A DNA stretch of 63,153 nucleotides, counting the filler, from Stramenopiles sp. TOSAG23-6 (lineage: Eukaryota): the NCBI GenBank assembly GCA_900128565.1. It is 48 parts of 48 records of this genome, joined end to end, with 100 filler letters (N's around TTAATTAATTAA, not from the genome) between each part and the next. Parts side by side here need not be neighbours in the genome. Positions count along the whole stretch, not along the records: positions 33,135 to 34,349 come from LT639460.1; 47 more parts are not named here. The stretch is one strand, 5' to 3'. Numbering within the stretch: position 1 is the first letter of the stretch; each line of letters opens with the position of its first letter. The position numbers were made by a program, and so were the translations under genes. Positions 9,409 to 48,712 of the stretch are shown piece after piece. The notes under the pieces are model-generated. The model worked only from the letters and a program-made list of their open reading frames with translations. It searched no databases and was not told the DNA's origin.

Positions 9409-10546
9409 AAAACTTGCAAAAGTTGATAATGGATTATTCACGACCCAACCAGTGTTGATAGAACGTCGTCCACTAGCACTAGCACTTCGTGTATTTCGTG
9501 TATTTCGTGTATTTCGTGTTTTTCTTCTCCCTCGAATTTGTGTCAAACTATTACTATTATAATGATTAGGGTTAGGGTTAATAGATATTTTCTTCCTCCT
9601 TCTTAATAGTCTAGGTTGACTTTTGCTTCGTCTTTTTCTTCTTATAGAAGTTTGACCATCATGTTTTGCGTGATGTTTCCATTTCGTACTAAATTTTGTA
9701 CCTAACGAATTTCGTATCTTTATATCTTTCATTCTATGTTTAACAATGGTTACTGCATTTCTTTCAGTCTTCCATCTATCTATATGTATTTTGGAAAAAT
9801 ATTTCAAAAAAAAAANTTAAATTTGTTAGGTACAAAATTTCGTACGAAAAAAAAATTAGATTTTTTTGTAAAAAAAAAAAATCTAAAATACATGCCTTTT
9901 TTTTCTTCGTTTGTTTGCTTCCACATGTGCTTTTCTTTCGATTTCTCGCCGTCTTCGATTTGGTCTTACCCTATACTTGAAAAAAATATAGACATTTTGA
10001 AAATTGTTAGATTTCTGGATTTTTAGGTATACACAATTTTTTTTTACAAAAAAAAAAAAAAAAAAAAAAAAATTTAAATTTCATTAGGGTTAGGGTTAGA
10101 TACATATTTTTCATATTCATTGATGTTCCTTTTAATGCCGATGTATTGTGAACAAATGTATTTCGCAAAAAAAACAAAGTCAGATATAGAATTTTCAATG
10201 TTCAATTCATGGTGAAAAAAATTCTAAAAAAAATTCAAAAAAAAAAAAAAAAACTAAATTTAAAATTCATCATTAAAAAATGAAAAAATGAAAAAATGAA
10301 AAAATACAAACTGTCACCTCTTCAATCTCNGAAGCAAATTTCCCACCCAATCTAGCAGCTCCAATTGTACCCTTTGCNCCNAGTCTAGCTGCACCNCGGG
10401 TNGTGTTGAATGCAATTCGTCCTGCTTCNATGTATTTTGGAAAAATATTTCAAAAAAAAAAATCTAAAAAAATTGTTAGGTACAAAATTTCGTATGAAAA
10501 CNAAANAAAAAATNGAAAAAAAGAAAACATACATTGTCCCTTTTGC
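9409..10546 (-). CDS. Arg/Lys-rich hypothetical protein, 5 exons
   Basis: One frame after removing 10430-10532, 10141-10307, 9971-10103 (GT-AG) and 9784-9891. Confidence 0.6.
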
Positions 10547-12026: not shown

Positions 12027-12690
12027 GGACGTTGACTCGAGAAATGTTAACAATCAAAAAAATTACAAAAAACGTCAGTGAAGTGAAATTCACTCCTGCT
12101 GTTATCGAACCATCATTTGGAGTCGGGCGAATTATTCAAGCTATCTTCGAACACAGTTACTATCAACGCGAGGAAGACAAGTCACGAGGTGTCATGAAAT
12201 TTCTCCCTGTTGTTGCCCCTGTCAAATGTGCATTATTTCCTTTATCCGGAGGTGACTCAGGTCCTTTTTCTGAAAGAGTTCAGCAAGTCCGTTCTGAGTT
12301 ATCAATGATGAATGTATCATGCCGAGTTGACGTACGTTTTCGTTTTTTTTTTCGTGTTTTTTTTTCGTAGTAAATTTTGTACCTAACAAAAAGATTTTAC
12401 TAAAAAAATATTTTTTCATAGTACATGCTTCCGCTGCATCAATTGGTAAACGATACGCTCGAAGCGATGAAATTGGTATTCCATTTGGTGTCACTGTCGA
12501 TTTCGAAACAATCAAAGAAGAATCAGAATTGTTTAATACTGTCACTTTAAGAGAAAGAGATTCAACTCATCAAATGCGTATATCAATTGACGAACTCCCA
12601 GAAATAATTGCAAGATTGTCTTCAGGACGTTTGGTTTGGTCTGAGGCATATGCTAAATATCCTAAAGTTGCCGTAAGCGAAGGTAAATAA
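12027..12690 (+). CDS. GARS1: Glycyl-tRNA synthetase (eukaryotic type), last two exons (12027-12331, 12427-12690)
   Basis: VIEPSFGVGRI; anticodon domain RVD|ASAASIGKRYARSDEIGIPFGVTVDF; VTLRERDS. Confidence 0.95.
12332..12426 (+). other. GT...AT intron, 95 nt
   Basis: GAC|GTACGTTTT...CATAGTACAT|GCT; removal restores the VDxSxxSIGxRYAR motif with no added residues. Confidence 0.88.
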
Positions 12691-16015: not shown

Positions 16016-17137
16016 ATGGCTCACTTACTCCCTGGTGTGTCTTGTCAGGTGACTGATGATGTTCACAGTCTTGAAGATATTTATCAGCGGTTCGATAATT
16101 TTGTTCCAAAAGAAACTATACCTGTTCTAGAGTCTTGTATTCTTCGTTTAATTGAGCTGAATCCTCAGAGAGAACGTGAATTTACAAAAGCCATGTTAAA
16201 AGTCCGTCGAGAGTTTAAACCACTCAATCCTAAAAAGTCACATTTACTCTACGTATATAGATTGATGGAAACGGAAGGCCGTTTACCAGAATCTGTGTTT
16301 ACAAATGATGGAGCTGGCTCAATATTGAGTGAGTTGCTTGTAAAGAAAAAAGGTAAAAGTGGTTCAGGCGTTTTGGTCATTACTGTGTTAACAAGTCCTT
16401 ATCCTTCAACAAGAGGTGGAAAGAAACAGAAATTTAGTTGTCAATGGAATTGTCATTACTGTCCAGCTGAACCAGGACAACCACGCAGTTATTTACATGA
16501 TGAACCTGCGGTATTACGCGCTAATCGTGATCAGTTTTGTCCCATCTTACAGTTTCATGACCGAGCAGCAACTTTAGCTATCAACGGCCACCCTGTCGAT
16601 AAAGTCGAATTATTAGTGTTAGGAGGTACCTGGGCATCCTATCCACATTCATATCAAGAAGAATTTTGTCGTGATTTATTTTATGCCGCAAACACGTTTT
16701 GGGATAGACAACATACACACCGTGATGCATTATCTTTAGAACAAGAACAACGCATCAACGAATCTGCACGCACAAAAATCATTGGTTTAACACTCGAGAC
16801 TCGACCTGATTGTATTAACGCCGATGAATTATTACGTTTTCGTCGGTATGGTTGTACTCGAATCCAAATTGGTGTACAACATACGCATGATGACGTGTCA
16901 AAATTAGTCAATCGAGGTCATGGTGTCAGAGAATCAATTGATGGTTTACGTTTATTACTGAATTCATGTTTTAAAGTAGATATGCATCTTATGCCAGATT
17001 TACCTGGTAGTAATGCTCAGAAAGATAAGGAAATGTTGGGAAGAGTTCTTTATTCAGAAGATTTAAGAGCTGATCAGTTAAAGTTATATCCACACAGTGT
17101 TGTTCCTTGGACATTGACTAAACAATGGCTAGATAAT
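16016..17137 (+). CDS. ELP3: Elongator subunit 3-like radical-SAM/acetyltransferase, first exon
   Basis: SGVLVITVLTSPYP, CQWNCHYCP, PRSY, LGGTW, LTLETRPD, HLMPDLP; ends at a family donor (17138). Confidence 0.93.
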
Positions 17138-18882: not shown

Positions 18883-19831
18883 TTATTGTGTTGTATAAAA
18901 ACATTTGTCTTGTGGTACCTGTGGTAACCATAACCCTAATGCAAAAGTATGAAATCGTTTTTTGGTATAACCAGCACTACGTTTGCGTTTCTTAGAAGTT
19001 CTTTGATTTGATGATGTCAAGTATTCTTTAAAATCATCTAGATAAAACACACTAACATCACCAGATTGCCATTTTCTAAATGTTTCATATCTTTGATTCA
19101 AACTTCTCTTCCAAGAATAAATTTCTACTTTCCATTTTGCTAATATTGCACTTTGTACGACTTCAGGAAATGTCACTTTTCCATTATTATCATTACCATC
19201 ACCAGTAACAAGAACTAAAGTCTGTTTTGTTTGACCATGATTTCGTTGAATTCTTGCTTGTATAGCATTCTGTAGAGCTGCATCGACTCCTTGCTCACCA
19301 CCAATAATAGCTACATTTTTTCGTGTTATTGTTTTAATTTTATTTGTGTTTTCAAAGCGAATATCATATAGTGCATTTGGTCCAGGGAATTTTGTCGTCG
19401 TATCATGCACATGACATACAGAACCACATTTTCTAAATTGTCCATAACCACCTTCTGATGAAGAGACTGATTTCAAATAACGCACTCGATCTCCTATGTT
19501 TAATTTTTGACCATTATCACATATAGTGTGAAAAATATTTTTTTTTTTTGTAAAAAAAAATCGTTAGGTACAAAATTTACTACGAAAAAATATTTCGGTA
19601 AAAAAAATGATGAAAAACGTACTAATTCGGCGTTCTAATTCTACTGCATAACCAGCTCTTTTCCAAAATGACCAATATGGTGTGTTAAGAGCACGCGCCG
19701 GTTCGATTTCACTTGATCCACACACTACACGAGCTCCTTTAATACGATCTAATTTTCTATTTTTTTCAACAATGTCAATAAGACAATTAAAATCCATATT
19801 TTTGCTTGTTCCACATTGAATATTACTAATA
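18883..19831 (-). CDS. NYN (PIN-like) domain protein, 2 exons (intron 19521-19622)
   Basis: EQGVDAAL, LVLVTGDGN and WKVEIYSW match NYN/LabA motifs. Confidence 0.75.
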
Positions 19832-23900: not shown

Positions 23901-24989
23901 CTGAAAAAATCTGTACGTTTTTTTTTTAAACCCTAACCCTAACTAAAAATACTAAAAATACTAAAAATACTAAAAATGTATATTTGTATGAACAGTGTAA
24001 AAAAATTAAATATTCAACATTTTTTTTTTTTTTTGAAATATTTTTTTTTCGTATACATCTTCATGGTTTTTCGATGGGTTGTATGATGTCACAGAGAATG
24101 GCAATGGAACATTCAAATATTATTGCTGGGTTTTCGTGTCATGGGGGAAGTTTAAACTGCATCCCATCTGATATTGCAGCAGGGAAAACCACTTTTAAGA
24201 TTGATTTAATGCCAGCTTTAGTGACAATTGGAAGTAATGATTCAAATTGGATAACTGGAGCAAAGGCAGGTGTATGTTTTTTTTTTTTCAAAAAAAAAAT
24301 TTCAAAATTTTTTTTCGTACGAAATTTTGTACCTAACAATTTTTTTTTTTTTGTAAAAAATATTTCTGTACAATATATATTCAAGCATGGAAAACATGGA
24401 ATTCGTGTACAACAAGTTCATCAACCTCACTAACTTTGACAGGGACAGAAAACACTTCAGCTACAAAGACAACGTATTCTTCATGTGCAGCTTACACACC
24501 TGCACTAAAAGTATGTTTTTCATCATGAATTTCTAATATTTTTTGTTCTTTTTGTCATTATGAATTTCAAAAAAAAAAAAAAAAAAAATTTATACAAAAT
24601 TTTGTATCTAACAAAAACAAATGTAAGAAAAAAAATTCAAAATATTTTTGATACTACATGTGGAACTGATTGAAATTGCAAACGCTGGTCATACAACAGA
24701 TGATCGAATGGCTACATTAAGTTGGAATTTTTTAAAAGTTTACGTATTTTTTTACAGTTACACTCTTTTTTATTTTTTTTATTTTTATGAATTTGTAATT
24801 TTGTACTGAAAAAAAAAAAAAGAACCCTAACCCTAATTGTACAGTTTTAAATATTTTTTAATCGTACAGAGTCGAACAGGAGCTTTAACAAATCTACCTG
24901 CAGCTTCAAAAATGACAAATGTATCATCTATGGCTGTGGTATCGACGCATTTGTTTGTATATTGCATATTTTTCATTGTTTTTTATTAA
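23901..24989 (+). CDS. Alpha/beta-hydrolase esterase (PHB-depolymerase/LpqC-like), 5 exons, hydrophobic C-terminal tail
   Basis: EKIY|LHGFSMG nucleophile elbow, W...N.C, IANAGH, WNFL; introns 23913-24056, 24272-24378, 24511-24659, 24744-24869. Confidence 0.8.
23913..24056 (+). other. GT...AC intron, 144 nt
   Basis: ATC T|GTACG...TTCGTATAC|AT CTT CAT gives KIYLHGFSMG; the AT two bases downstream breaks the frame. Confidence 0.7.
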
Positions 24990-25352
24990 TTTTTTAAATA
25001 CAATTTGAAATAAAAAAAATAAAAACATTAAAAAAAAATTGAAATTTTATTTATTTATTTTTTTTTTGTTTTTTTATTTTTTTGTTTAGGTACAAATTTT
25101 ACTATGAAAAAAAAAATTGTTTNNNNNNNNNNNNNNNNNNNNNNNNNNNNNNNNNNNNNNNNNNNNTTAATTAATTAANNNNNNNNNNNNNNNNNNNNNN
25201 NNNNNNNNNNNNNNNNNNNNNNTTTTTCGTACGAAATTTTGTACCTAACAAAATATTTTTTTTTTTTTTTTGGAAAAATTTTTCTTAGGTTTAGGTAAAA
25301 AATTTTTTTACCAAAAAAAAAAAAAAAAAAAAAATATTTTTTCACAATATAT

Positions 25353-26296
25353 GTTTGGATAGATGAAAAGCAATACCTGATTCCATTGATGAGTCTCCTT
25401 GGTTGTGGACGGAATAAGCAAACCAGTAGAAATCTACATTACCAAAATGAAAATTCAAATCAAACTAATCAGGGAAATAATTACATTACTGTAACATCTG
25501 TACGTTTTTTTTTTTTTTTTTTCGTACGAAATTTTGTACCTAACATTTTTTTGAATTTTTTTCTAAAAATATTTTTTTTTTCGTACGAAATTTTGTACCT
25601 AACATTTTTTTTGAATTTTTTTCTAAAAATATTTTTACAAAATACATGATGGCTCGATTATCGCAAAAGCTACAAAACAATATCTGAAAGGAGAGAGACT
25701 TAATATTGGATGTTATTGGCCCGCAAATGATCTCTTTTTACACACAGGATTTGTGGAACCAATGATGATGAAGTATGATATAATGACTAGTCAAACAGAA
25801 AATATTCAATTACATTCAGAAGTGCAAAGACAAATGATGTACGTTTTATTTTTTTTTCAAATTTATATTTTTTTTCGTACGAAATTTCGTACCTAACAAA
25901 AAAAAAAAAAAAAATTTGAAATATTTTTTTACAAAACATGAATGATTGTGTTAATGTTGAAATAAAATTATCAAATATTGAAAACATTGGAGGAAAAAAA
26001 TATAAGAAAAAAAAACGCCAATTGAAGTCAGTAGGTATTGACTATGTACGTTTTATTTTTTTTATTTTTTAAAAATTGAATTTTTTTTTCGTACGAAATT
26101 TCGTACCTAACAAAAATTAAATTTTTTTTTGAAATATTTTTCCATAATCCATGTACAAGATATATTCTGTCTCTCATCTGCAAGTCGCCCAGGTGGCGTC
26201 GCGGGTCATTCAACACAAGAGCTTTGGTCATTTCTTCGAATATTATATGATCTAAAGGACGAAGATGTCTTTGCGCCTCGGAGTACTCTTGCTCAT
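25353..26296 (+). CDS. SET-domain lysine methyltransferase (Rubisco-LSMT/SETD3-like), 4 exons
   Basis: LIPLM, AKATKQYLKGERLNIG...DLFLHTGFV, NDCVNVEI, ELWSFLRI after removing three GT-AT introns (25500-25647, 25839-25939, 26046-26152). Confidence 0.6.
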
Positions 26297-27763: not shown

Positions 27764-27866
27764 NNNNNNNNNNNNNNNNNNNNNNNNNNNNNNNNNNNNN
27801 NNNNNNNTTAATTAATTAANNNNNNNNNNNNNNNNNNNNNNNNNNNNNNNNNNNNNNNNNNNNTTT

Positions 27867-27910
<44 letters not shown>

Positions 27911-27918
27911 CAATACAG

Positions 27919-29013
27919 GAAGCATTTACAACACGAATATTAGCTGAATTTGATTTTTTTCTAGACTCTTACGCACACGAAATCGGAGTTTTATTAATTG
28001 AACCTCAATTTGGTTCTATAATAGCTGCCATGCCTTGGGATCCAAAATTACTTTATGAGTATATATGTTTTATTTTTTTTTTCAAATTCCAATTTTTTTT
28101 TTTATAAAAATTTTGTACCTAACTAACAATTTTAGATTTTTTTTTTTTGAAATATTTTTCCAAAATATATATTTACAGAGCACAAGAACGAGGAATTTTC
28201 GTGTGTGCTGATGAAGTGATGTGTGGATTAGGACGTCATGGAAAATTAGACAATTTGTTTTTGAGTGGTTGTACATTTTCATTATGACTATATGAATGTA
28301 AGGTTTTTTTTTTATACAAAATTTTGTACCTAAGAAATTTTAATTTTTTTTTTAAAATCTTTTTTCAAAGTACATGTCTTGATATACCACCAGTCGATGC
28401 TGTAACATTTGGAAAATCAATAGGTAATTTTTTTTTTTTTTAATTTTTTTTTTTAATTTTTTTTTTTTGGTTTTCATACGAAATTTTCATAGAAAACAAT
28501 TTTTTATATTTGGAATATATTTTTATATTGTAGGTGGTGGTGTATTTCCAATATCAGGAGCAATTCTAAGACAAGGTGCCTCAGAACTTGGCTCACATGG
28601 ACAATCTGTTTTGCAATCTCATACATGAATGTTTTACTTTTTTTCAATTTATAATTTATTTTTTTTGAAAATTTTGTACCTAAGAAATTTTTGAATTTTT
28701 TTTTTTAAATATTTTCCAAAAATACATATTGTGGCAGTTCTGAATTGGCTATTTTAGCAGCAACATCAACTCTTACAATGATTAAACAATGGCAACCTCA
28801 TATCCAAAATATATCAAAAATTCTTGAAAATATTTTTAATGATATTTCAAATGAAACAAATGATACAATTCTCATTCATGGTCAAGGTTTGATGTGGGGT
28901 GGAATTTTTCAACATTCTGATAAAGAGTTAAGAAATGAAGCAAAGATGATTTTACAAAAAAAATGTGAAGAACAAGGTGTTTTGCCTTATTTTGTACCAG
29001 TTGGAGGATTCAT
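27919..29013 (+). CDS. Class-III PLP-dependent aminotransferase, 5 exons (27919-28062, 28171-28270, 28376-28423, 28534-28626, 28728-29013)
   Basis: LLIEPQ, ADEVMCGLGRHG, DAVTFGKSIGGG.FP.SG, SHTYCG and GQGLMWG all fall in one frame after splicing. Confidence 0.9.
28063..28170 (+). other. AT...AT intron, 108 nt
   Basis: TAT|ATATGTTTT...AAAATATAT|ATT; family core present; joins LLYEY to IYRAQERG. Confidence 0.7.
28627..28727 (+). other. GA...AT intron, 101 nt
   Basis: ACA T|GAATGTTTT...AAAATACAT|AT TGT restores HTY; a +1 shift gives HTC and a +2 shift gives a stop. Confidence 0.8.
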
Positions 29014-29182
29014 GTATGTTTTATTTATTTATTTTTTTTTTCAATTTCGAATTTATTTTTTTCGTACGAAATTTTGTACCTANNNNNNNNNNNNNNNNNN
29101 NNNNNNNNNNNNNNNNNNNNNNNNNNTTAATTAATTAANNNNNNNNNNNNNNNNNNNNNNNNNNNNNNNNNNNNNNNNNNNN

Positions 29183-29970
29183 GCTGCTGTCGGAGCTGCA
29201 GTTGGTGATGGTGTTGTTGATGGTGTTGGTGATGTAGTTGGCGATGCAGTTGGCGATGCAGTTGGTGTTGCTGTTGGAGCTGCTGTCGGAGCTGCAGTTG
29301 GAGCTGCTGTTGGTGATGCAGTTGGTGATGGTGTTGTTGATGGTGTTGGTGATGCTGTTGGAGCTGCTGTCGGAGCTGCAGTCGGAGCTGCTGTTGGGGT
29401 GATGGTGTTGTTGATGCTGTCGGAGCTGCAGTCGGAGCTGCAGTTGGAGCTGCAGTTGGTGTTGCTGTCGGAGCTGCTGTTGGAGCTGCTGTTGGAGCTG
29501 CTGTTGGAGCTGCTGTTGGAGCTTCTGGTGTTCGTTTGTTCGGAACTTTTATATAACCTTCAATCTGACTGGTGAGATTTCTTAGAGCATAATCGAGCAT
29601 TTGCGTAAAAGCATCGTGTGTCATCGTTGGTTGTGTGTCTTCTGTGGTAATTTCTGCTGTAAATGTATGCCATCCGTCCTCACATTTGATATAGGAATAA
29701 TCCGTCACAGTTGAGTCCGTTGAACTCGTCACAGTTGAGTCCGTTGAACTTTGCGTTGCAGTTAATGCACTAATGATAGCTTTTATCCATTTGATTTCTA
29801 CTTTAGATTCTGGATCGCATTCTGCTGCTTCAAGACTTCGTCCACGCCGAGTGACTGATCTCTTCATTTTAAAGTCTTGATATTCTATCATTGGAGCTGC
29901 TGTTGGAGCTGCTGTAGCTGCAGTTGTAGCTTCAATCGTAGCTGGTGTCGGAGCTGGTGTCGGTTTATTC
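29183..29970 (-). CDS. Mucin-like Pro/Thr/Ala repeat protein, fragment
   Basis: (PTAA)n 12-bp repeats around a small Cys-containing domain; frame slip near 29400. Confidence 0.65.
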
Positions 29971-30401
29971 AATAATCTCTACAATATGTCAATCTATTTG
30001 AGATAAATAAACATTTTTATCATGCACAAGCAAATACTTTTTACATTTTAATAAAATCAAAAATACAGACAATAATCTGTACAATACGTCAATAGTATTT
30101 GAAATAAATAAAAAAATTATAATTTAAAAGTAAACATCATTCATCTTTTGAATAAAAACAAAAATACGGTGCTCAATAATCTGTACAATATGTCAATAGT
30201 ATTTGAAATAAATAAACAATTTTATCATCTAAAAGCAAACATCATTCATCCTTTGAATAAAAACAAAAATACGCCCAATAATCTCTACAATATGTCAGTA
30301 GTATTTGAAATAAATAAACATCTTCACCATGTAAAAGCAAACATCATTCATCTTTTGAATAAAAACAAAAATACGCCCAATAATCTGTACAATATGTCAA
30401 T
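29969..30401. repeat. 102-bp AT-rich tandem satellite, about 4 units
   Basis: Recurring AATAATCTGTACAATATGTCAATAGTATTTGAAATAAATAAAC...; same unit as 34450-35663. Confidence 0.92.
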
Positions 30402-33134: not shown

Positions 33135-33189
<55 letters not shown>

Positions 33190-33242
33190 CCGAAAAAACC
33201 AAAAAAAAAAAAAAAGACCCGATAGTTTTCATAAACTCCAAA

Positions 33243-34291
33243 ATGGAAAAAAAATATGTTTTGGTCTTTGTCATATCAGTGCAAAAAATGTACCCTTTTT
33301 ACTCTTTTGTAGTAATTTAGTGAGTGCTTTAGCAGCTGGTATGACTGTTAAATTTTTTCCAGTTTTTTTTAAAATTGAAGTCGGACTATCGCCAGTTTGT
33401 TTTCAATTTTGAATTTATTTATTTTTGAATTTTTTTTTTTCGTACGAAATTTTGTACCTAACATTTTTTTTTAAATAATTTTTTTTCACTAGTACAGGTT
33501 TGTGTCATGGCTGTATATGTCATAACGCCTATTTGTATGGCTATTTCAATATATGTGTCAAAAAGTATAGCAATTAACTACGGATTTGGACGTGTAGAGA
33601 CAGTTCAAGTGCAACGGTTTTTGGGTATGTATGTTTTTCAAAAAAAATTTCAAAATTTAAATTTTCAAAATTTTTTTTTAAAATTTTTTCTATATTTTTT
33701 CAAAAAAAAAAAATTTAAATTTTTTTTTTTTTTTAATTTATTTTTTTTTTTTTTTTTTTTTTTGTAGTATCTCTTCACTTCCCCTCCCTATTCTTCCTAT
33801 CCTCATAACAAAGAAAATGAAATTTGGAAAATATATTTTTTTAATACATTTTATTTCTAATTATTTTGGCTATTTTTAAGTCCTTATGGAAGCATAAAAT
33901 TATCTGTGTTTTTGTATACATTTTTCGTACCATTTTTACATCATCTGGATGGCCATTAATCAATTCAGTAATGAATGATTATACAAGAAAAGGAACACGT
34001 GCCAAGTATGTTTTATATATATTTGTATTTTCATACGAAATTTCAAAACGAATCAAAATAATATTGAATTTCAAAACGAAACAAAAAAAAATTTAAAAAA
34101 AATTTAAAAAAAAAAATGTGTGATTTTTTTTTTTTTTTAATTTTTTTTTTTCATACCTAATGATATTTTGTACTAAGCATTTCGAAACTGTACATATTGT
34201 ACCAAAATACATATGGAATTCGTTACAATCTATCGCTGGATTTGGCTGGTCAGGTTCAGCAGCTCTAGGAGGGATTTTAATACACAAATAT
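33243..34291 (+). CDS. Major facilitator superfamily transporter, internal exons
   Basis: LAAGMTVKFFPVFF, GRV, YIFRT...PL..SVMNDY...TRAK|WNSLQSI..FGWSGSAALGG; introns 33395-33497 (AG), 33629-33849 (AT), 34006-34212 (AT). Confidence 0.8.
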
Positions 34292-34449
34292 GTCTGTTTT
34301 ATTTTTTTTCAATTTCGAATTTATTTTTTTATAAAAATTTTGTACCTAANNNNNNNNNNNNNNNNNNNNNNNNNNNNNNNNNNNNNNNNNNNNTTAATTA
34401 ATTAANNNNNNNNNNNNNNNNNNNNNNNNNNNNNNNNNNNNNNNNNNNN

Positions 34450-35763: not shown

Positions 35764-36912
35764 TGAAAACATGCATGGATTATGAAAAAATATTTCAAAA
35801 AAAAAAAACTCAAATTTGTTAGGTACAAAATTTCATACAAAAAAAACAATAAACTCGAAATTGAAAAAAAATAAAACATACAGGGTCGGATTCCCAACCT
35901 CGTGGTGCACTGCTACCCATTTCACTTCTATTGAGTTGTTGATCATAAAGATGTAAAATCATTGTACCTATATTGTGAAAAAGGTTTTTTGTTGGTACAA
36001 AATTTCATAAGAAAAAAATAAATTCGAAATTGAAAAAAAAATTGAAAAAAAAAAACATACCTACTGCAAAGACATCCATTGTGAAAAACTCACGTTTGGT
36101 CAACAATGAACCTTTCGAACTTCGTAACTCTCCATACTTTTCTCCTACACGTGGAAAGTATTATGAAAAAATATTTTAAATTCAATATTTTTGTTAGGTA
36201 CGAAATTTCGTACGGAAAAACCAACTACATTCGAAATTGAAAAACAATACAACATACGTCCTATATGCCACGTCATTTTGTAGATTCTTGACAAGCGTTT
36301 TATTAGTTTCATCCTTCGNNNNNNNNNNNNNNNNNNNCTTTTTCTTACTTCCATAATCAACTAAAGCAACTTTAATTTGACCATACTTTGTAATTTTTGT
36401 CATAATATTTTCAGCCTTTATATCACTGTTTATCCAACCTAAATCATTTAAATCCTTAATTGCCATCATTAATTGTCTAAATTTTTCCTTAAACACAACA
36501 TGAGGAGTATTTTGATTGCTTTTAAATTCTTTCGTATCTCCAAATATATCATCATACTTTTCAAATATTAAGGCATGACACCCCAATCTATTAATTGCAC
36601 CATAAAATTCAGGCATATATTGTGAAAAAATATTTTTTGGTTTTTATTAGGTACGAAATTTACTATAAAAANNNNNNNNNNNNNNNNNNNNNNNNNNNNN
36701 NNNNNNNNNNNNNNNNNNNNNNNNNNNAAAAAAAATAAAACATACATGTAATCCATGTGATAATTGTAATGTTTTGCATCACTTGAGATTTGAGTTATTA
36801 TTGTCTTTTCAATTTCAAAATGCTTTTTGTTTTTGAAAAGCTTGATTGCACGTAATTCACCATCTGCCAGATCTGCATTCTCTGCTGCTGCTAGTTCACG
36901 TACAATATACAC
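35764..36912 (-). CDS. Divergent Ser/Thr protein kinase, 5 exons
   Basis: RAIKLF, NSDIKAENIM, LVDYG, AYRT|P, MDVFAV|GTMILHL; introns 36615-36745, 36156-36257 (GT-TT), 35968-36060 (GT-AG), 35775-35881. Confidence 0.8.
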
Positions 36913-41068: not shown

Positions 41069-41514
41069 GTTTCGTACAAGCAAAGGAATGGGTGTGCGTA
41101 TGAATGGATGTTTGAGTGGTTTTGCACCTGCGATGAATGGTTTACTTGAAAGTTCAATTTTCACTCAGAATATTTGTTCGACAGTTGTTACTCATGTACT
41201 TGTACGTTTTATATGAATTTCTAATTTAATTTTTTTTTTTGGTTTCATACGAAATTTCGTACCTAACGATTTTTTTTTTCCGGTAAAAAATATTTTTTCA
41301 CAATACTTGTACGTTGTTCTTTTTACTTTCAAAAGTTATTTATTTTTATACCTAATACAAAGGTTTTGTACCTAACGTATTTCAAATTTGACATATTTTT
41401 TCACAATACTTGCCCCACGTCCTGGAGAAACAATCATTGATATGTGTGCAGCACCTGGAGGCAAATCAACTCATATTGGCGCACTTATGAAAAACGAAGG
41501 AATTCTTGTTTCAT
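41069..41514 (+). CDS. NSUN6: NSUN6-like tRNA m5C methyltransferase, exons 41069-41201 and 41412-41514
   Basis: GMGVRM...QN..S.VV.HVL|APRPGETIIDMCAAPGGKSTHI. Confidence 0.88.
41202..41411 (+). other. Two abutting GT...TT intron units (41202-41308, 41309-41411) with no exon between them
   Basis: CTT|GTACGTT...CAATACTT|GTACGTT...CAATACTT|GCC; each unit has its own GTACCTAAC and ATAT box. Confidence 0.85.
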
Positions 41515-42325: not shown

Positions 42326-42749
42326 AAAAATCGAAAATTGGTCTCAAAAGGTGGTTTTTTGTTTGTTTTCAATTTTTTTTTTTTTTTTTTTTTAGTATGA
42401 AATTTTGTACATAACAAAAAAAAAAATTTAAAATTATACGTAACAAAAAAAACGAATTCAAAATATTTTTTCACGATACATAGAAGATAAATTTGGACAA
42501 GAACAAATTAGCCGATTAAAGAAAGAAGGATTTAAAAGTCATTCAACGTACAAAACGTTTTTACTTCAAATTCCTGATTTAACTCAAGAAGAGCTTAAAA
42601 ACATGTATTGGTACAGTTCTAGTGCAAAACTTTCTGCTGAGGGAAAAAAAAGACAGAGAGAAAAAAAAGGCTTTTTTGAGGTCCCTTTAGTATATCATTA
42701 CTGCGGTCGATCATACAAAACTGATAATCCCTCAAATTTCAAAAAATAA
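42326..42749 (+). CDS. Hypothetical protein, C-terminal exons (intron 42361-42481)
   Basis: Open frame SKGGFL|EDKFGQEQ...NFKK*; missing from the ORF track. Confidence 0.55.
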
Positions 42750-43017
42750 AAAAAATATTAGGTACAAAATTTCGTACGAAAAAAAAAAAAATCAAAAAAA
42801 AAGTCTCTTTAGCGAGTTATTTACATAATACAGTTGTAGAGGATATAACTGATTTTATTATAAATTATAAATCTACTATTTGATATAAATATCGTAGATT
42901 TGAATATAACCAGTATTGACAAGAAGGATGGCACTTCATTCATACTTTCGAAATTGAAATTTTTTTTTGGTATGAAATTTCGTAACTAACAAATTTCGAA
43001 TTTGCTTAGTGTCACTT

Positions 43018-43536
43018 TCAAAAAGACATTTTGCGTGGAGTCTCAGATATACTAGTAATTTCTCTACTTGACACGTCACGTGTGTGGTGCTTTATAGGAG
43101 TATCTGCTATAATACTAATGACTCCTGGATTTCTTGGACTATTCGGTGCATTTTTCATCGGCGTTGAAATCTCTGTGAAAGGATTGAAATTTCTATTAGT
43201 ATTACTGCCTCTACGAGGACGAAATGGCTGTTTTGTTGGAGTATCTTGAATTACAGTCACAGAAGATGAAGTTACTTCCATTGGACGAACATTTTCGTTT
43301 TGTGTGCTTTGGATTTGTATTGGATGTAGTTGTATCTTTTTATGAGTTGATCCTACATGTATTGTAAAAAACAATGTAAAAAACGATTTTTTTCTTAGGT
43401 ACAAAATTCCGTACGAAAAAAAAACTAAATTTAAAATTGAAAACAAAATAAACCATACATGTAAGGATGGCGATTGTGTCCATCTTCGCCTTTTTTTTAA
43501 GGGAGGCGATTTTGTTGCAGACTCTTTTCCGTTGCA
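43018..43536 (-). CDS. TP/SP-rich hypothetical protein, C-terminal exons (intron 43357-43458)
   Basis: VIQDTP, IIADTP and ISETP repeats; frame restored by intron removal. Confidence 0.55.
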   Translation of the reverse strand, partial: CNGKESATKSPPLKKRRRWTQSPSLHVWFILFSILNLVFFSYGILYLRKKSFFTLFFTIHVGSTHKKIQLHPIQIQSTQNENVRPMEVTSSSVTVIQDTPTKQPFRPRRGSNTNRNFNPFTEISTPMKNAPNSPRNPGVISIIADTPIKHHTRDVSSREITSISETPRKMSF

Positions 43537-43636: not shown

Positions 43637-44847
43637 AAAAATCGAAAATTGGTCTCAAAAGGTGGTTTTTTGTTTGTTTTCAATTTTTTTTTTTTTTTTT
43701 TTTTAGTATGAAATTTTGTACATAACAAAAAAAAAAATTTAAAATTATACGTAACAAAAAAAACGAATTCAAAATATTTTTTCACGATACATAGAAGATA
43801 AATTTGGACAAGAACAAATTAGCCGATTAAAGAAAGAAGGATTTAAAAGTCATTCAACGTACAAAACGTTTTTACTTCAAATTCCTGATTTAACTCAAGA
43901 AGAGCTTAAAAACATGTATTGGTACAGTTCTAGTGCAAAACTTTCTGCTGAGGGAAAAAAAAGACAGAGAGAAAAAAAAGGCTTTTTTGAGGTCCCTTTA
44001 GTATATCATTACTGCGGTCGATCATACAAAACTGATAATCCCTCAAATTTCAAAAAATAAAAAAAATATTAGGTACAAAATTTCGTACGAAAAAAAAAAA
44101 AATCAAAAAAAAAGTCTCTTTAGCGAGTTATTTACATAATACAGTTGTAGAGGATATAACTGATTTTATTATAAATTATAAATCTACTATTTGATATAAA
44201 TATCGTAGATTTGAATATAACCAGTATTGACAAGAAGGATGGCACTTCATTCATACTTTCGAAATTGAAATTTTTTTTTGGTATGAAATTTCGTANCTAA
44301 CAAATTTCGAATTTGCTTAGTGTCACTTTCAAAAAGACATTTTGCGTGGAGTCTCAGATATACTAGTAATTTCTCTACTTGACACGTCACGTGTGTGGTG
44401 CTTTATAGGAGTATCTGCTATAATACTAATGACTCCTGGATTTCTTGGACTATTCGGTGCATTTTTCATCGGCGTTGAAATCTCTGTGAAAGGATTGAAA
44501 TTTCTATTAGTATTACTGCCTCTACGAGGACGAAATGGCTGTTTTGTTGGAGTATCTTGAATTACAGTCACAGAAGATGAAGTTACTTCCATTGGACGAA
44601 CATTTTCGTTTTGTGTGCTTTGGATTTGTATTGGATGTAGTTGTATCTTTTTATGAGTTGATCCTACATGTATTGTAAAAAACAATGTAAAAAACGATTT
44701 TTTTCTTAGGTACAAAATTCCGTACGAAAAAAAAACTAAATTTAAAATTGAAAACAAAATAAACCATACATGTAAGGATGGCGATTGTGTCCATCTTCGC
44801 CTTTTTTTTAAGGGAGGCGATTTTGTTGCAGACTCTTTTCCGTTGCA
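43637..44847. repeat. Duplicate of contig 42326-43536 (redundant assembly entry)
   Basis: Same length, same ends and same ORFs; the only difference I saw is one N. Confidence 0.95.
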
Positions 44848-47568: not shown

Positions 47569-48712
47569 TGGTAGATGCCGATAGTATAGAGAGATCAGTG
47601 AATCGGGGTGTGACTATTCTTAAACTTTTGCGAGATATCGCCCAAGAATTTACCACTAAAAAACAAGGGAAAAAGGACCCTAGTATGGTCTTCGCAGACT
47701 TGGGTATGACGGCTTCTGTGCTTTTGTTGGAATTAAAGCGTTGCAACAGGGAAGTATTTGTTGGTCTTCACGAATCAAAGAAGCTTGTTACTGCAAAAAA
47801 GGAATCTCTTGATGCAGCTTTTCTTGGTTTGCAAAATCTTGAATATGAAAAAGCTCATTTACTACGTCAAATTGAACGAAACCAGTCAATTAAGACTGTT
47901 GAAATGGACAAAATAAAACTTGTATCTGAAAAAGAGTACAAAAAGTCGACTGGTGATACTTTAAAACGGCATGGTAATGACCGACATGCATATCAGTTAA
48001 GTCGCTTAGCTCATGAACTATCAACACGACAATCTCAGCATCAAGCTGGCGAGGAGCTTGAATTTAAGCGAGTTGCAATAAGCCGCCAGACTGCGGCGAA
48101 GTCTCAATTTATTAGTGGCCTGCCACGCCATCTCCGACAAATCGAAAAGTCTACTGAACCCCTACAAAAGTACATTAAAATGCCAACATCATTGCGTCGT
48201 AAGAAACATGAACGTGCTAAATCATTGCCTTCGCCTTTATACGTGCTTTACTGTCAATTTGAAGGATATATTGACGCTTTTTCTTCACAACAGTCTGGAA
48301 GCGTCTCTAACATCAGGTACGTTTTCATTTGAATTTCGATTTTTTTTTTTTTGGTAAAAAAATTTTGTACCTAAAGCAAAACAAAATTATTATTTTGTAC
48401 ATATCAGTATACACATTTACGACGAGGAAGAAGAAAACGAAGAAGAGCGAAGACGAAAGTTTCCTTCTAGAAAACGAAAACGGGTCGAGAAGGATATCGG
48501 TGCTAGCAAAACTAATAAAATTGCAGAGAAATCTGTCGTTGTTGAAAATTCTACTATTAAAACAGACCAATTGAATTGTCCTGTTGGACTTGGAATTTAT
48601 CTCAGAATAGAAGTTGAAGATAAAAGCGGTAGACAGGCAGTTGATATTATATTTAGACATTTACCTTTACTTAATGCCGTTACTGCTGAAACACGTGGGC
48701 ATCCTAACGCAT
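47569..48712 (+). CDS. THOC5: THO complex subunit 5, partial (GT-AG intron 48317-48407)
   Basis: LKRCNR, LQNLEYEKAHL, RLAHEL..R, PLQKY, LPSPLYVLY. Confidence 0.88.

Follow-up and report, generated by a model that had tools for sequence, protein, structure and literature searches.

An intron spliced with GT...AT ends in a transporter gene of an uncultured marine stramenopile, and the family of look-alike introns to which it belongs

A basic question raised by one transporter gene of Stramenopiles sp. TOSAG23-6 is where an intron ends when its last two letters are not AG. A terminal AG is near-universal, is one of the best-conserved signals of gene expression in eukaryotes and is thought to be needed for the second step of splicing. 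The intron at 34006-34212 is without a 3' terminal AG and ends in AT, and if its borders were moved two bases upstream that AT would be exonic instead. The intron sits in the contig at 33135-34349 of the window, by which we mean the whole stretch of DNA that was analysed: 63,153 bases made up of 48 separate contigs of ~1.2 kb, ordered by falling length and joined by linkers of the form N44-TTAATTAATTAA-N44. GC content is ~30% overall, and the window holds long reading frames in the standard code.

The sequence at this intron reads ...acacgtGCCAA/GTATGTTTTATATA...GTACCAAAATACAT/ATGGAATTCG (slashes mark the borders), with an upstream exon that ends in AA, not AT, and with GTATGT, an extended GTRWGT-like 5' site, at 34006. 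The preliminary description had pointed out that, with this exon end, the GT register gives RAKWNS and a border 1-2 nt upstream gives RAIWNS, and that reading holds in the sequence: excision of 34006-34212 leaves CGT GCC AAA TGG AAT TCG, which is translated as RAKWNS. Contigs assembled from four RNA runs, each of a different study, were mapped on 33216-34349, and in two of the four runs a contig joins 34005 to 34213, skipping 207 nt with ends GT..AT and with a single possible placement of the joint ('both' = 0). The X5 contig is 193 nt long (120 + 73) with 1 differing letter, and the X6 contig is 170 nt long (129 + 41) with 4 differing letters. In both contigs the cDNA reads GCCAAATGG, as predicted from the GT register, and not GCCATATGG, while the interior of the intron (34014-34203) has zero contig depth in all four RNA runs. 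The joints come from assembled contigs of mixed seawater communities, at depths of 2.9 and 3.4, rather than from raw reads of a single organism. The contig 33135-34349 was matched by 22 runs, including one probable DNA source; several of the matching runs are seawater or marine poly(A) metatranscriptomes that hold 10-20% of the contig's sampled words, and the others hold smaller shares or are additions from the same study. The ligated product confirms that this intron is spliced precisely from G34006 to T34212, with GT..AT ends.

The relatives of the transporter place the junction at the same point. The 52 residues of exon 3, used as query in a HMMER search, returned 7 proteins at E<=0.001, five of which span the junction (Table 1), and in an alignment of the transporter exons with their relatives (A1) the last column of exon 3 immediately precedes the first column of exon 4, with no gap. 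The junction residue is K in 4/5 relatives, M in 1/5 and I in 0/5. The basic residue expected at this position (RARW/RAKW) is present as K in four of the relatives, and the fifth has M there (RAMW). The earlier assignment to the MFS family is borne out by the relatives, which match Pfam MFS_1 (cut-off 33.4) with 101 bits for P0126, 41.2 for P0121 and 38.3 for P0122. Pfam gave zero matches at 1e-3 on the single exons of the window's gene because these exons are too short, and a word-based search for homologues of exon 3 in longer proteins also gave zero matches. P0123 and P0127 end ...HRYGFLRILNI and ...HRCVFLHKVVSS, a few residues upstream of the window's junction, and look like gene calls that run into an intron at a nearby, different position.

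Table 1. Parts of the transporter gene, AG-ending members of the intron family and junctions in transporter relatives (window positions; a slash marks an exon-intron border)
Feature	Position	Strand	Remarks
Exon 1 (partial), MFS_1-type transporter	33305..33394	+	Open frame; ends ...GLSP; aligns to P0121, P0122 and P0126 (A1)
Intron 1	33395..33497	+	Family member holding TTTTCGTACGAAATTTTGTACCTAAC; GT..AG, ends ...GTACAG
Exon 2	33498..33628	+	Open frame; ends ...QRFLG + AT of split codon
Intron 2	33629..33849	+	AT/GTATGTTTTTC...AATACAT/T; GT..AT, 2-nt register ambiguity; frame kept at this length only
Exon 3	33850..34005	+	Ends ...NDYTRKGTRA + AA of K codon; RNA contigs X5 33886-34005, X6 33877-34005
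Intron 3	34006..34212	+	GTATGTTTTATA...CCAAAATACAT; 207 nt; RNA joint GT..AT in X5 and X6
Branch-site-like motif (putative branch site)	34170..34177	+	GTACTAAG; family form GTACCTAA(C); alignment of introns
Conserved 3' block	34197..34212	+	TTGTACCAAAATACAT; weight-matrix match, A2, RNA joint; cut after final T
Exon 4	34213..34291	+	A + WNSLQSIAGFGWSGSAALGGILIHKY; RNA contigs X2, X5 and X6; adjoins exon 3 in A1
Intron 4, 5' part	34292..34349	+	AT/GTCTGTTTTATTTTTTTTCAATTTCGAATTT...TTTTGTACCTAA; truncated by contig end
AG-ending member	33497		...GTACAG; RNA-verified
AG-ending member	27918		...AATACAG
AG-ending member	59992		...AAAACAG
AG-ending member	35968		...AATATAG
Relative P0121			Junction RAMW
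Relative P0122			Junction RSKW
Relative P0126			Junction RGKW
Relative P0124			Junction RAKF
Relative P0125			Junction RAKF

Within this one gene, RNA gives both cut positions for one AT-ending and one AG-ending intron. Contigs from X2 and X6 cover exon 1 and carry a joint from 33394 to 33498 with ends GT..AG and a register ambiguity of 6 letters, and the same intron 1 stands unspliced in an X3 contig that spans 33216 to 33416 and crosses its 5' border. X2 and X6 contigs also lie over 33498-33616 of exon 2, whose spacing to exon 3 is, by eye, as in P0121. Intron 2 is bridged by zero RNA contigs in the four runs, a result that is uninformative either way. At 34291/34292 the X2 contig departs from the genome and then reads GFQVCFGVTA in frame, like P0121.

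One possibility is that the joined RNA contigs record an empty site in a strain, allele or paralogue that never carried the insertion, since the mapped contigs all come from mixed communities and the X6 contig differs at 4 letters. We consider this very unlikely. The X5 contig differs at a single letter in 193, the 207 nt, which carry stops in all frames, would otherwise disrupt the gene in the window, and the contig 33135-34349 holds three more introns of the same family, one of which is found both spliced (X2, X6) and unspliced (X3). The family is also oriented almost exclusively in the sense direction, which insertion into DNA or deletion from it does not require. For the 120 nt that follow 35 strong 3' ends, frames were open in the sense direction only in 24 cases, in the antisense direction only in 1, in both in 8 and in neither in 2; in the 120 nt before 42 GTAYGTTT sites, 30 were sense-only and 1 antisense-only, and random places used as a control gave 1106 sense-only against 1113 antisense-only. 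This near-constant orientation relative to coding frames argues for removal from RNA, not from DNA.

The family to which the intron belongs accounts for most introns of the window: they form one sequence family in which GTAYGTTTT is followed by TTTTGTACCTAAC and then by TTTTTCMAAATACAT, and look-alike introns are found in unrelated genes. TGTACCTAA has 50 occurrences on both strands against 0.23 expected, and 0/100 shuffles reach 50. Alignment of 20 introns (A2) gives the layout (AT)/GTATGTTTTATTTTTTTT, a variable T/A filler that often contains AATTTCGAATTT, then TTTTCGTACGAAATTTTGTACCTAAC, a T-rich filler and GAAATATTTTTTCAnAATACAT/, with GTACCTAA invariant in 20/20 introns and a mean column identity of 50%. 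The blocks common to the family exceed a 5' site, a branch and a 3' site, and they include the palindromes AATTTCGAATTT and TTTCGTACGAAA. An Rfam scan of the window gave 0 matches. Among metagenome contigs, a family 22-mer gave 0 matches and a 16-mer at least 118 loci; the family's 3' block is in none of the matches listed, and these 16-mer loci are therefore chance matches. In the RNA assemblies, at two places in the transporter contig, 33406-33481 and 34280-34349, the conserved intron module has a summed contig depth of ~13,600-51,900 in X3 and X5, versus 2-7 on the exons, and loose contig ends there resemble 5' or 3' parts of other family introns. Intron-bearing family RNA (or DNA carry-over) is very common in marine metatranscriptome assemblies.

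How widely the AT ending is shared was assessed on a curated set of 28 complete introns, picked via frame continuity and not exhaustive. Excluded from it were 31115, where either of two ends would stay in frame; 48317, where the frames conflict; 47255/47389; the introns of the duplicate contig 43637-44847; and every intron truncated by a contig end. The ends are GT..AT in 21, GT..AG in 3, GT..TT in 2, AT..AT in 1 and GA..AT in 1, so that GT opens 26/28 of the introns and AG closes only 3/28. A weight matrix of the 3' end, scored without the last base, found 35 strong matches, all 35 of which end in T, the matrix having been trained on T-ending examples; the AG-ending members receive lower scores. 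These members hold G exactly where the others hold T, with ...GTACAG beside ...GTACAT and ...AATACAG beside ...AATACAT. In 8/24 of the non-AG introns that have the branch-like block, an unused AG lies downstream of it, ahead of the 3' end, and in the intron at 12332-12426, in a glycyl-tRNA synthetase contig, use of the AG located 5 nt before the end would break the frame of the Pfam anticodon-binding domain. In the THOC5 gene, the intron at 48317-48414 has a long downstream frame that is reached only if the cut falls one base short of the family-aligned end or if the contig has an indel, and it is possibly an exception to the end rule. A fragment of the family module, CGTACTAAATTTTGTACCTAACGAA, was also noted at 9686-9710 (+) inside the minus-strand exon 9409-9783, where it lies antisense in an open coding frame and is translated as ...NSLGTKFSTK...; it may be an exonised antisense insertion.

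The register of these ends is more difficult to read from sequence than that of the transporter intron. Only 34006-34212 and 36257-36156 have zero register ambiguity among the 28 introns, and the register is ambiguous in nearly all the others because AT also closes the upstream exon in most cases. In 18/28 introns (2/5 for introns with non-AT ends) the exon and the intron have identical final dinucleotides, and the register two bases upstream yields the same mRNA in 18/28, in keeping with the earlier remark that many junctions are ambiguous through AT exon ends. Where exons end otherwise, the remark that the introns at 19622, 24272, 24511, 25500, 35881 and 42361 still end in AT proved accurate for 6/6. 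Their 5' sites are TA/GT at 19622, GT/GT at 24272, CT/GT at 25500, CT/GT at 35881, AA/GT at 24511 (which ends ...CTACAT) and TT/GTTTGT at 42361 (which ends ...GATACAT); 24511 and 42361 lie outside the set of 28 and were checked separately, and both are GT..AT.

An alternative reading of the family is that the borders lie 2 nt upstream throughout, with an NN...AC intron (AT-AC in most members) that is removed like the known AT-AC introns, leaving the terminal AT in the exon. The ambiguous junctions just described are compatible with it, AT precedes GTAYGTTT in 23/42 sites (background AT frequency 9.7%), and the intron at 28627 has clean AT..AC ends in the -2 register, against GA..AT otherwise. 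For 34006-34212 the reading is refuted by the unambiguous RNA joint, which keeps AA in the exon, and by the relatives, none of which has I at the junction. Moreover, for the family as a whole the -2 register turns the first two letters of the introns into AA, AC, GT, CT, TT, TA and others, which are far less conserved than GT, and at 28268 it destroys a conserved FLS. We give this alternative next to no credence.

The conflict at 28268 comes from a second gene, a class-III aminotransferase encoded by the contig 27864-29082. When 28063-28170, 28268-28375, 28424-28533 (GT..AG) and 28627-28727 are excised at the family-aligned ends, the five exon translations tile four relatives with no gap or overlap, and the split codons encode G and Y, as in the relatives (A3, the alignment of the aminotransferase exons with these four). 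The exon before 28268 ends in TG; the -2 register replaces the S of FLS, which is kept in 4/4 relatives, and a -1 register would be compatible. Colinearity with the relatives also requires the removal of 28063-28170 and 28627-28727, neither of which offers a GT start in any register. The first starts ATATGT and can be read only as AT..AT or TA..TA. The second opens with GAATGT; ...ATACAT precedes it, as one copy of a 6-nt direct repeat that flanks the intron, and over its registers the possible starts are GA, TG, AT, CA, AC, TA and AT. The 5' rule is therefore also somewhat relaxed. The preliminary description had used 28627 together with the transporter junction to bracket the boundary at GT...AT rather than AT...AC; the RNA fixes that boundary for 34006-34212, its application to the whole family is an extrapolation that the FLS at 28268 backs, and 28627 itself starts with GA and never with GT.

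By what machinery are these introns removed? Our preferred interpretation is that the spliceosome removes 34006-34212 from transcripts of an MFS-type transporter gene, with cuts at GT...AT, and that this intron is one of a large introner-like family that forms most introns of the window; we hold this to be very probably correct. The word spliceosomal is applied provisionally, from the likeness of the family's motifs to those of spliceosomal introns. The classical branch motif is TACTAAC; the motif in these introns is TACTAAG or TACCTAAC, the latter with one extra C. In the mechanism that we propose, the major spliceosome would remove the family introns, reading GTAYGT as the 5' site and TACYTAA(C) as a putative branch site. 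The conserved TTTTTCMAAATAC block, rather than an AG, would place the 3' site two bases downstream of the block, so that upstream AGs would be bypassed and the last intron base could be T or G. The two letters after the block are AT in the majority of members; a few have AG or TT at that aligned position.

The minor spliceosome could be considered in place of the major one. U12-type introns have the 5' site RTATCCTT and a branch roughly 10-20 nt from the 3' end. The 5' site of the family is GTAYGTTTT, ATCC at +3..+6 occurs in none of the 28 introns (by-eye reading of the first letters), and the distance from the branch-like block to the intron end is 23-49 nt (median 42.5). It is exceedingly improbable on these grounds that the family consists of U12-type introns tolerant of GT-AT ends, even with CCTAAC loosely like the U12 branch consensus and GT-AT a documented, rare U12-type pair (4 cases in human and 3 in mouse among those described in PMC1557818).

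A different mechanism that may be envisaged is removal outside the spliceosome, as proposed for the nonconventional introns of euglenids, in which the GUAU and AUAC ends would pair and the cuts would fall at the foot of the helix, leaving a two-letter overhang. Position 1 can indeed pair with position -3 in 28/28 introns, 86% of cells pair in the 4-bp terminal helix, the 3' end is not AG and two members are without GT. Shuffled sequences pair at 84%, and 68/500 of them reach the observed value, hence there is no covariation support; the helix is at most 4 bp long, with a predicted P<0.15 in 18/28 introns, and is strong in a minority. The AG-ending members have their ends at the same aligned position, and the strong GTAYGT, the TACYTAAC block and the T-tracts are signals read by the spliceosome. 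We therefore regard removal by a non-spliceosomal route as unlikely and retain the spliceosomal interpretation.

The origin of the family is a separate issue. AT direct repeats flank most copies, and longer repeats flank some of them, with TACTT on both sides of 41202-41411 and the ATACAT already described at 28627. The module is tandemly duplicated inside single introns, with a period of 59 and 2.1 copies at 25513-25636 and two modules back-to-back at 41202-41411. The flanking AT fits an element bounded by short inverted ends (GTAT...ATAC) that duplicates its 2-nt target or prefers to insert at such sites; an identical pattern would arise if the splicing machinery favoured these letters on the exon side. 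The terminal inverted ends are 4 nt only (GTAT/ATAC) and are without covariation support, and the similarity between copies lies in blocks and does not extend to the whole sequence; a genome-wide splicing code with AT-rich filler could equally explain this. We put a transposon origin of the family at about even odds.

We think it somewhat probable that the 3' splice-site rule has shifted in this uncultured marine lineage, with most introns (~3/4 of those in the window) being GT...AT, along with the spread of one introner-like family. If true, this is a lineage whose major intron class lacks the AG of the second step, and the routine use of AT together with a normal GT start and a branch-like block would provide a natural experiment on how the second-step site is chosen. 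It would also be a further case in which the tolerance of the spliceosome changes alongside an invasion of look-alike introns. In practical terms, gene finders that allow only GT-AG introns will break most genes of the TOSAG23-6 stramenopile, and the GT...AT register, not AT...AC, is needed to re-annotate these genomes and to map metatranscriptome reads correctly.

Several other features of the window are of interest to annotation. The ELP3 gene (16025-17137), in one long exon, has an uninterrupted frame that is identical to P0001 except for 8 residues absent from P0001, and from this comparison the public ELP3 model P0001 looks like one with a spurious 24-nt intron or gap; the next ELP3 matches, at 55-63% identity, include oomycetes, Aureococcus and Hondaea. 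The ELP3 matches indicate a marine stramenopile from a MAST-type lineage and speak against a diplonemid. A 102-bp tandem satellite, whose copies are 84-85% alike, fills one contig (34450-35663, ~12 copies) and the end of another (29970-30401, 4 copies). The contigs 42326-43536 and 43637-44847 look near-identical, agree in ORF and intron ends, and could represent alleles or a duplication in the assembly. Short telomere-like repeats, CCCTAACCCTAAC / TTAGGGTTAGGG, occur in or beside introns of the contig 23901-25122, at 23913-23960 (+) and ~24801 (-).

In the literature searched, we found no paper on GT-AT introners and nothing relevant on introns or splicing in MAST-3. The main text of the single-cell MAST genome paper has 'intron' in its methods only and does not contain 'splice', and neither 'MAST' nor 'stramenopile' occurs in the main text of PMC9860276 or PMC12130899, both surveys of introners. 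The GT-AT introns of animals, which among the cases described in PMC1557818 comprise the human and mouse U12-type examples mentioned above and one U2-type intron in DGCR2, have the same terminal dinucleotides and allow productive exon ligation; they amount to a handful per genome, whereas in the window the pair is found in 21/28 curated introns with U2-like signals.

Intron families derived from transposons offer another parallel. Families with non-canonical borders are described in PMC11282704 for Fritillaria borealis (AG-AC, AG-AT), Amoebophrya, Polarella, dinoflagellates and euglenids. Like such introners, the window family places look-alike introns in unrelated genes of a marine organism, has short direct repeats that blur the register and short inverted ends, and has borders other than GT-AG that are evidently handled by the host machinery. 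Unlike them, it keeps the 5' GT and deviates essentially only in the last base (AT for AG), contains long internal blocks, one of them a yeast-like branch block, and resides in a heterotrophic stramenopile. The nonconventional introns of euglenids and diplonemids, as described in PMC6221363 and PMC12621601, resemble the window family in having borders that are non-canonical, junctions with direct repeats, ends that are complementary and an origin suspected to lie in MITEs; these euglenozoan introns are without a conserved GT or a polypyrimidine tract, whereas the window family has a conserved GTAYGT, a branch-like block, T-tracts and a weak helix. Rare GT-AT exceptions and transposon-like families with odd borders are thus known from elsewhere, and what is new here is an introner-like family that keeps GT but ends in AT and makes up the main class of introns in a stramenopile.
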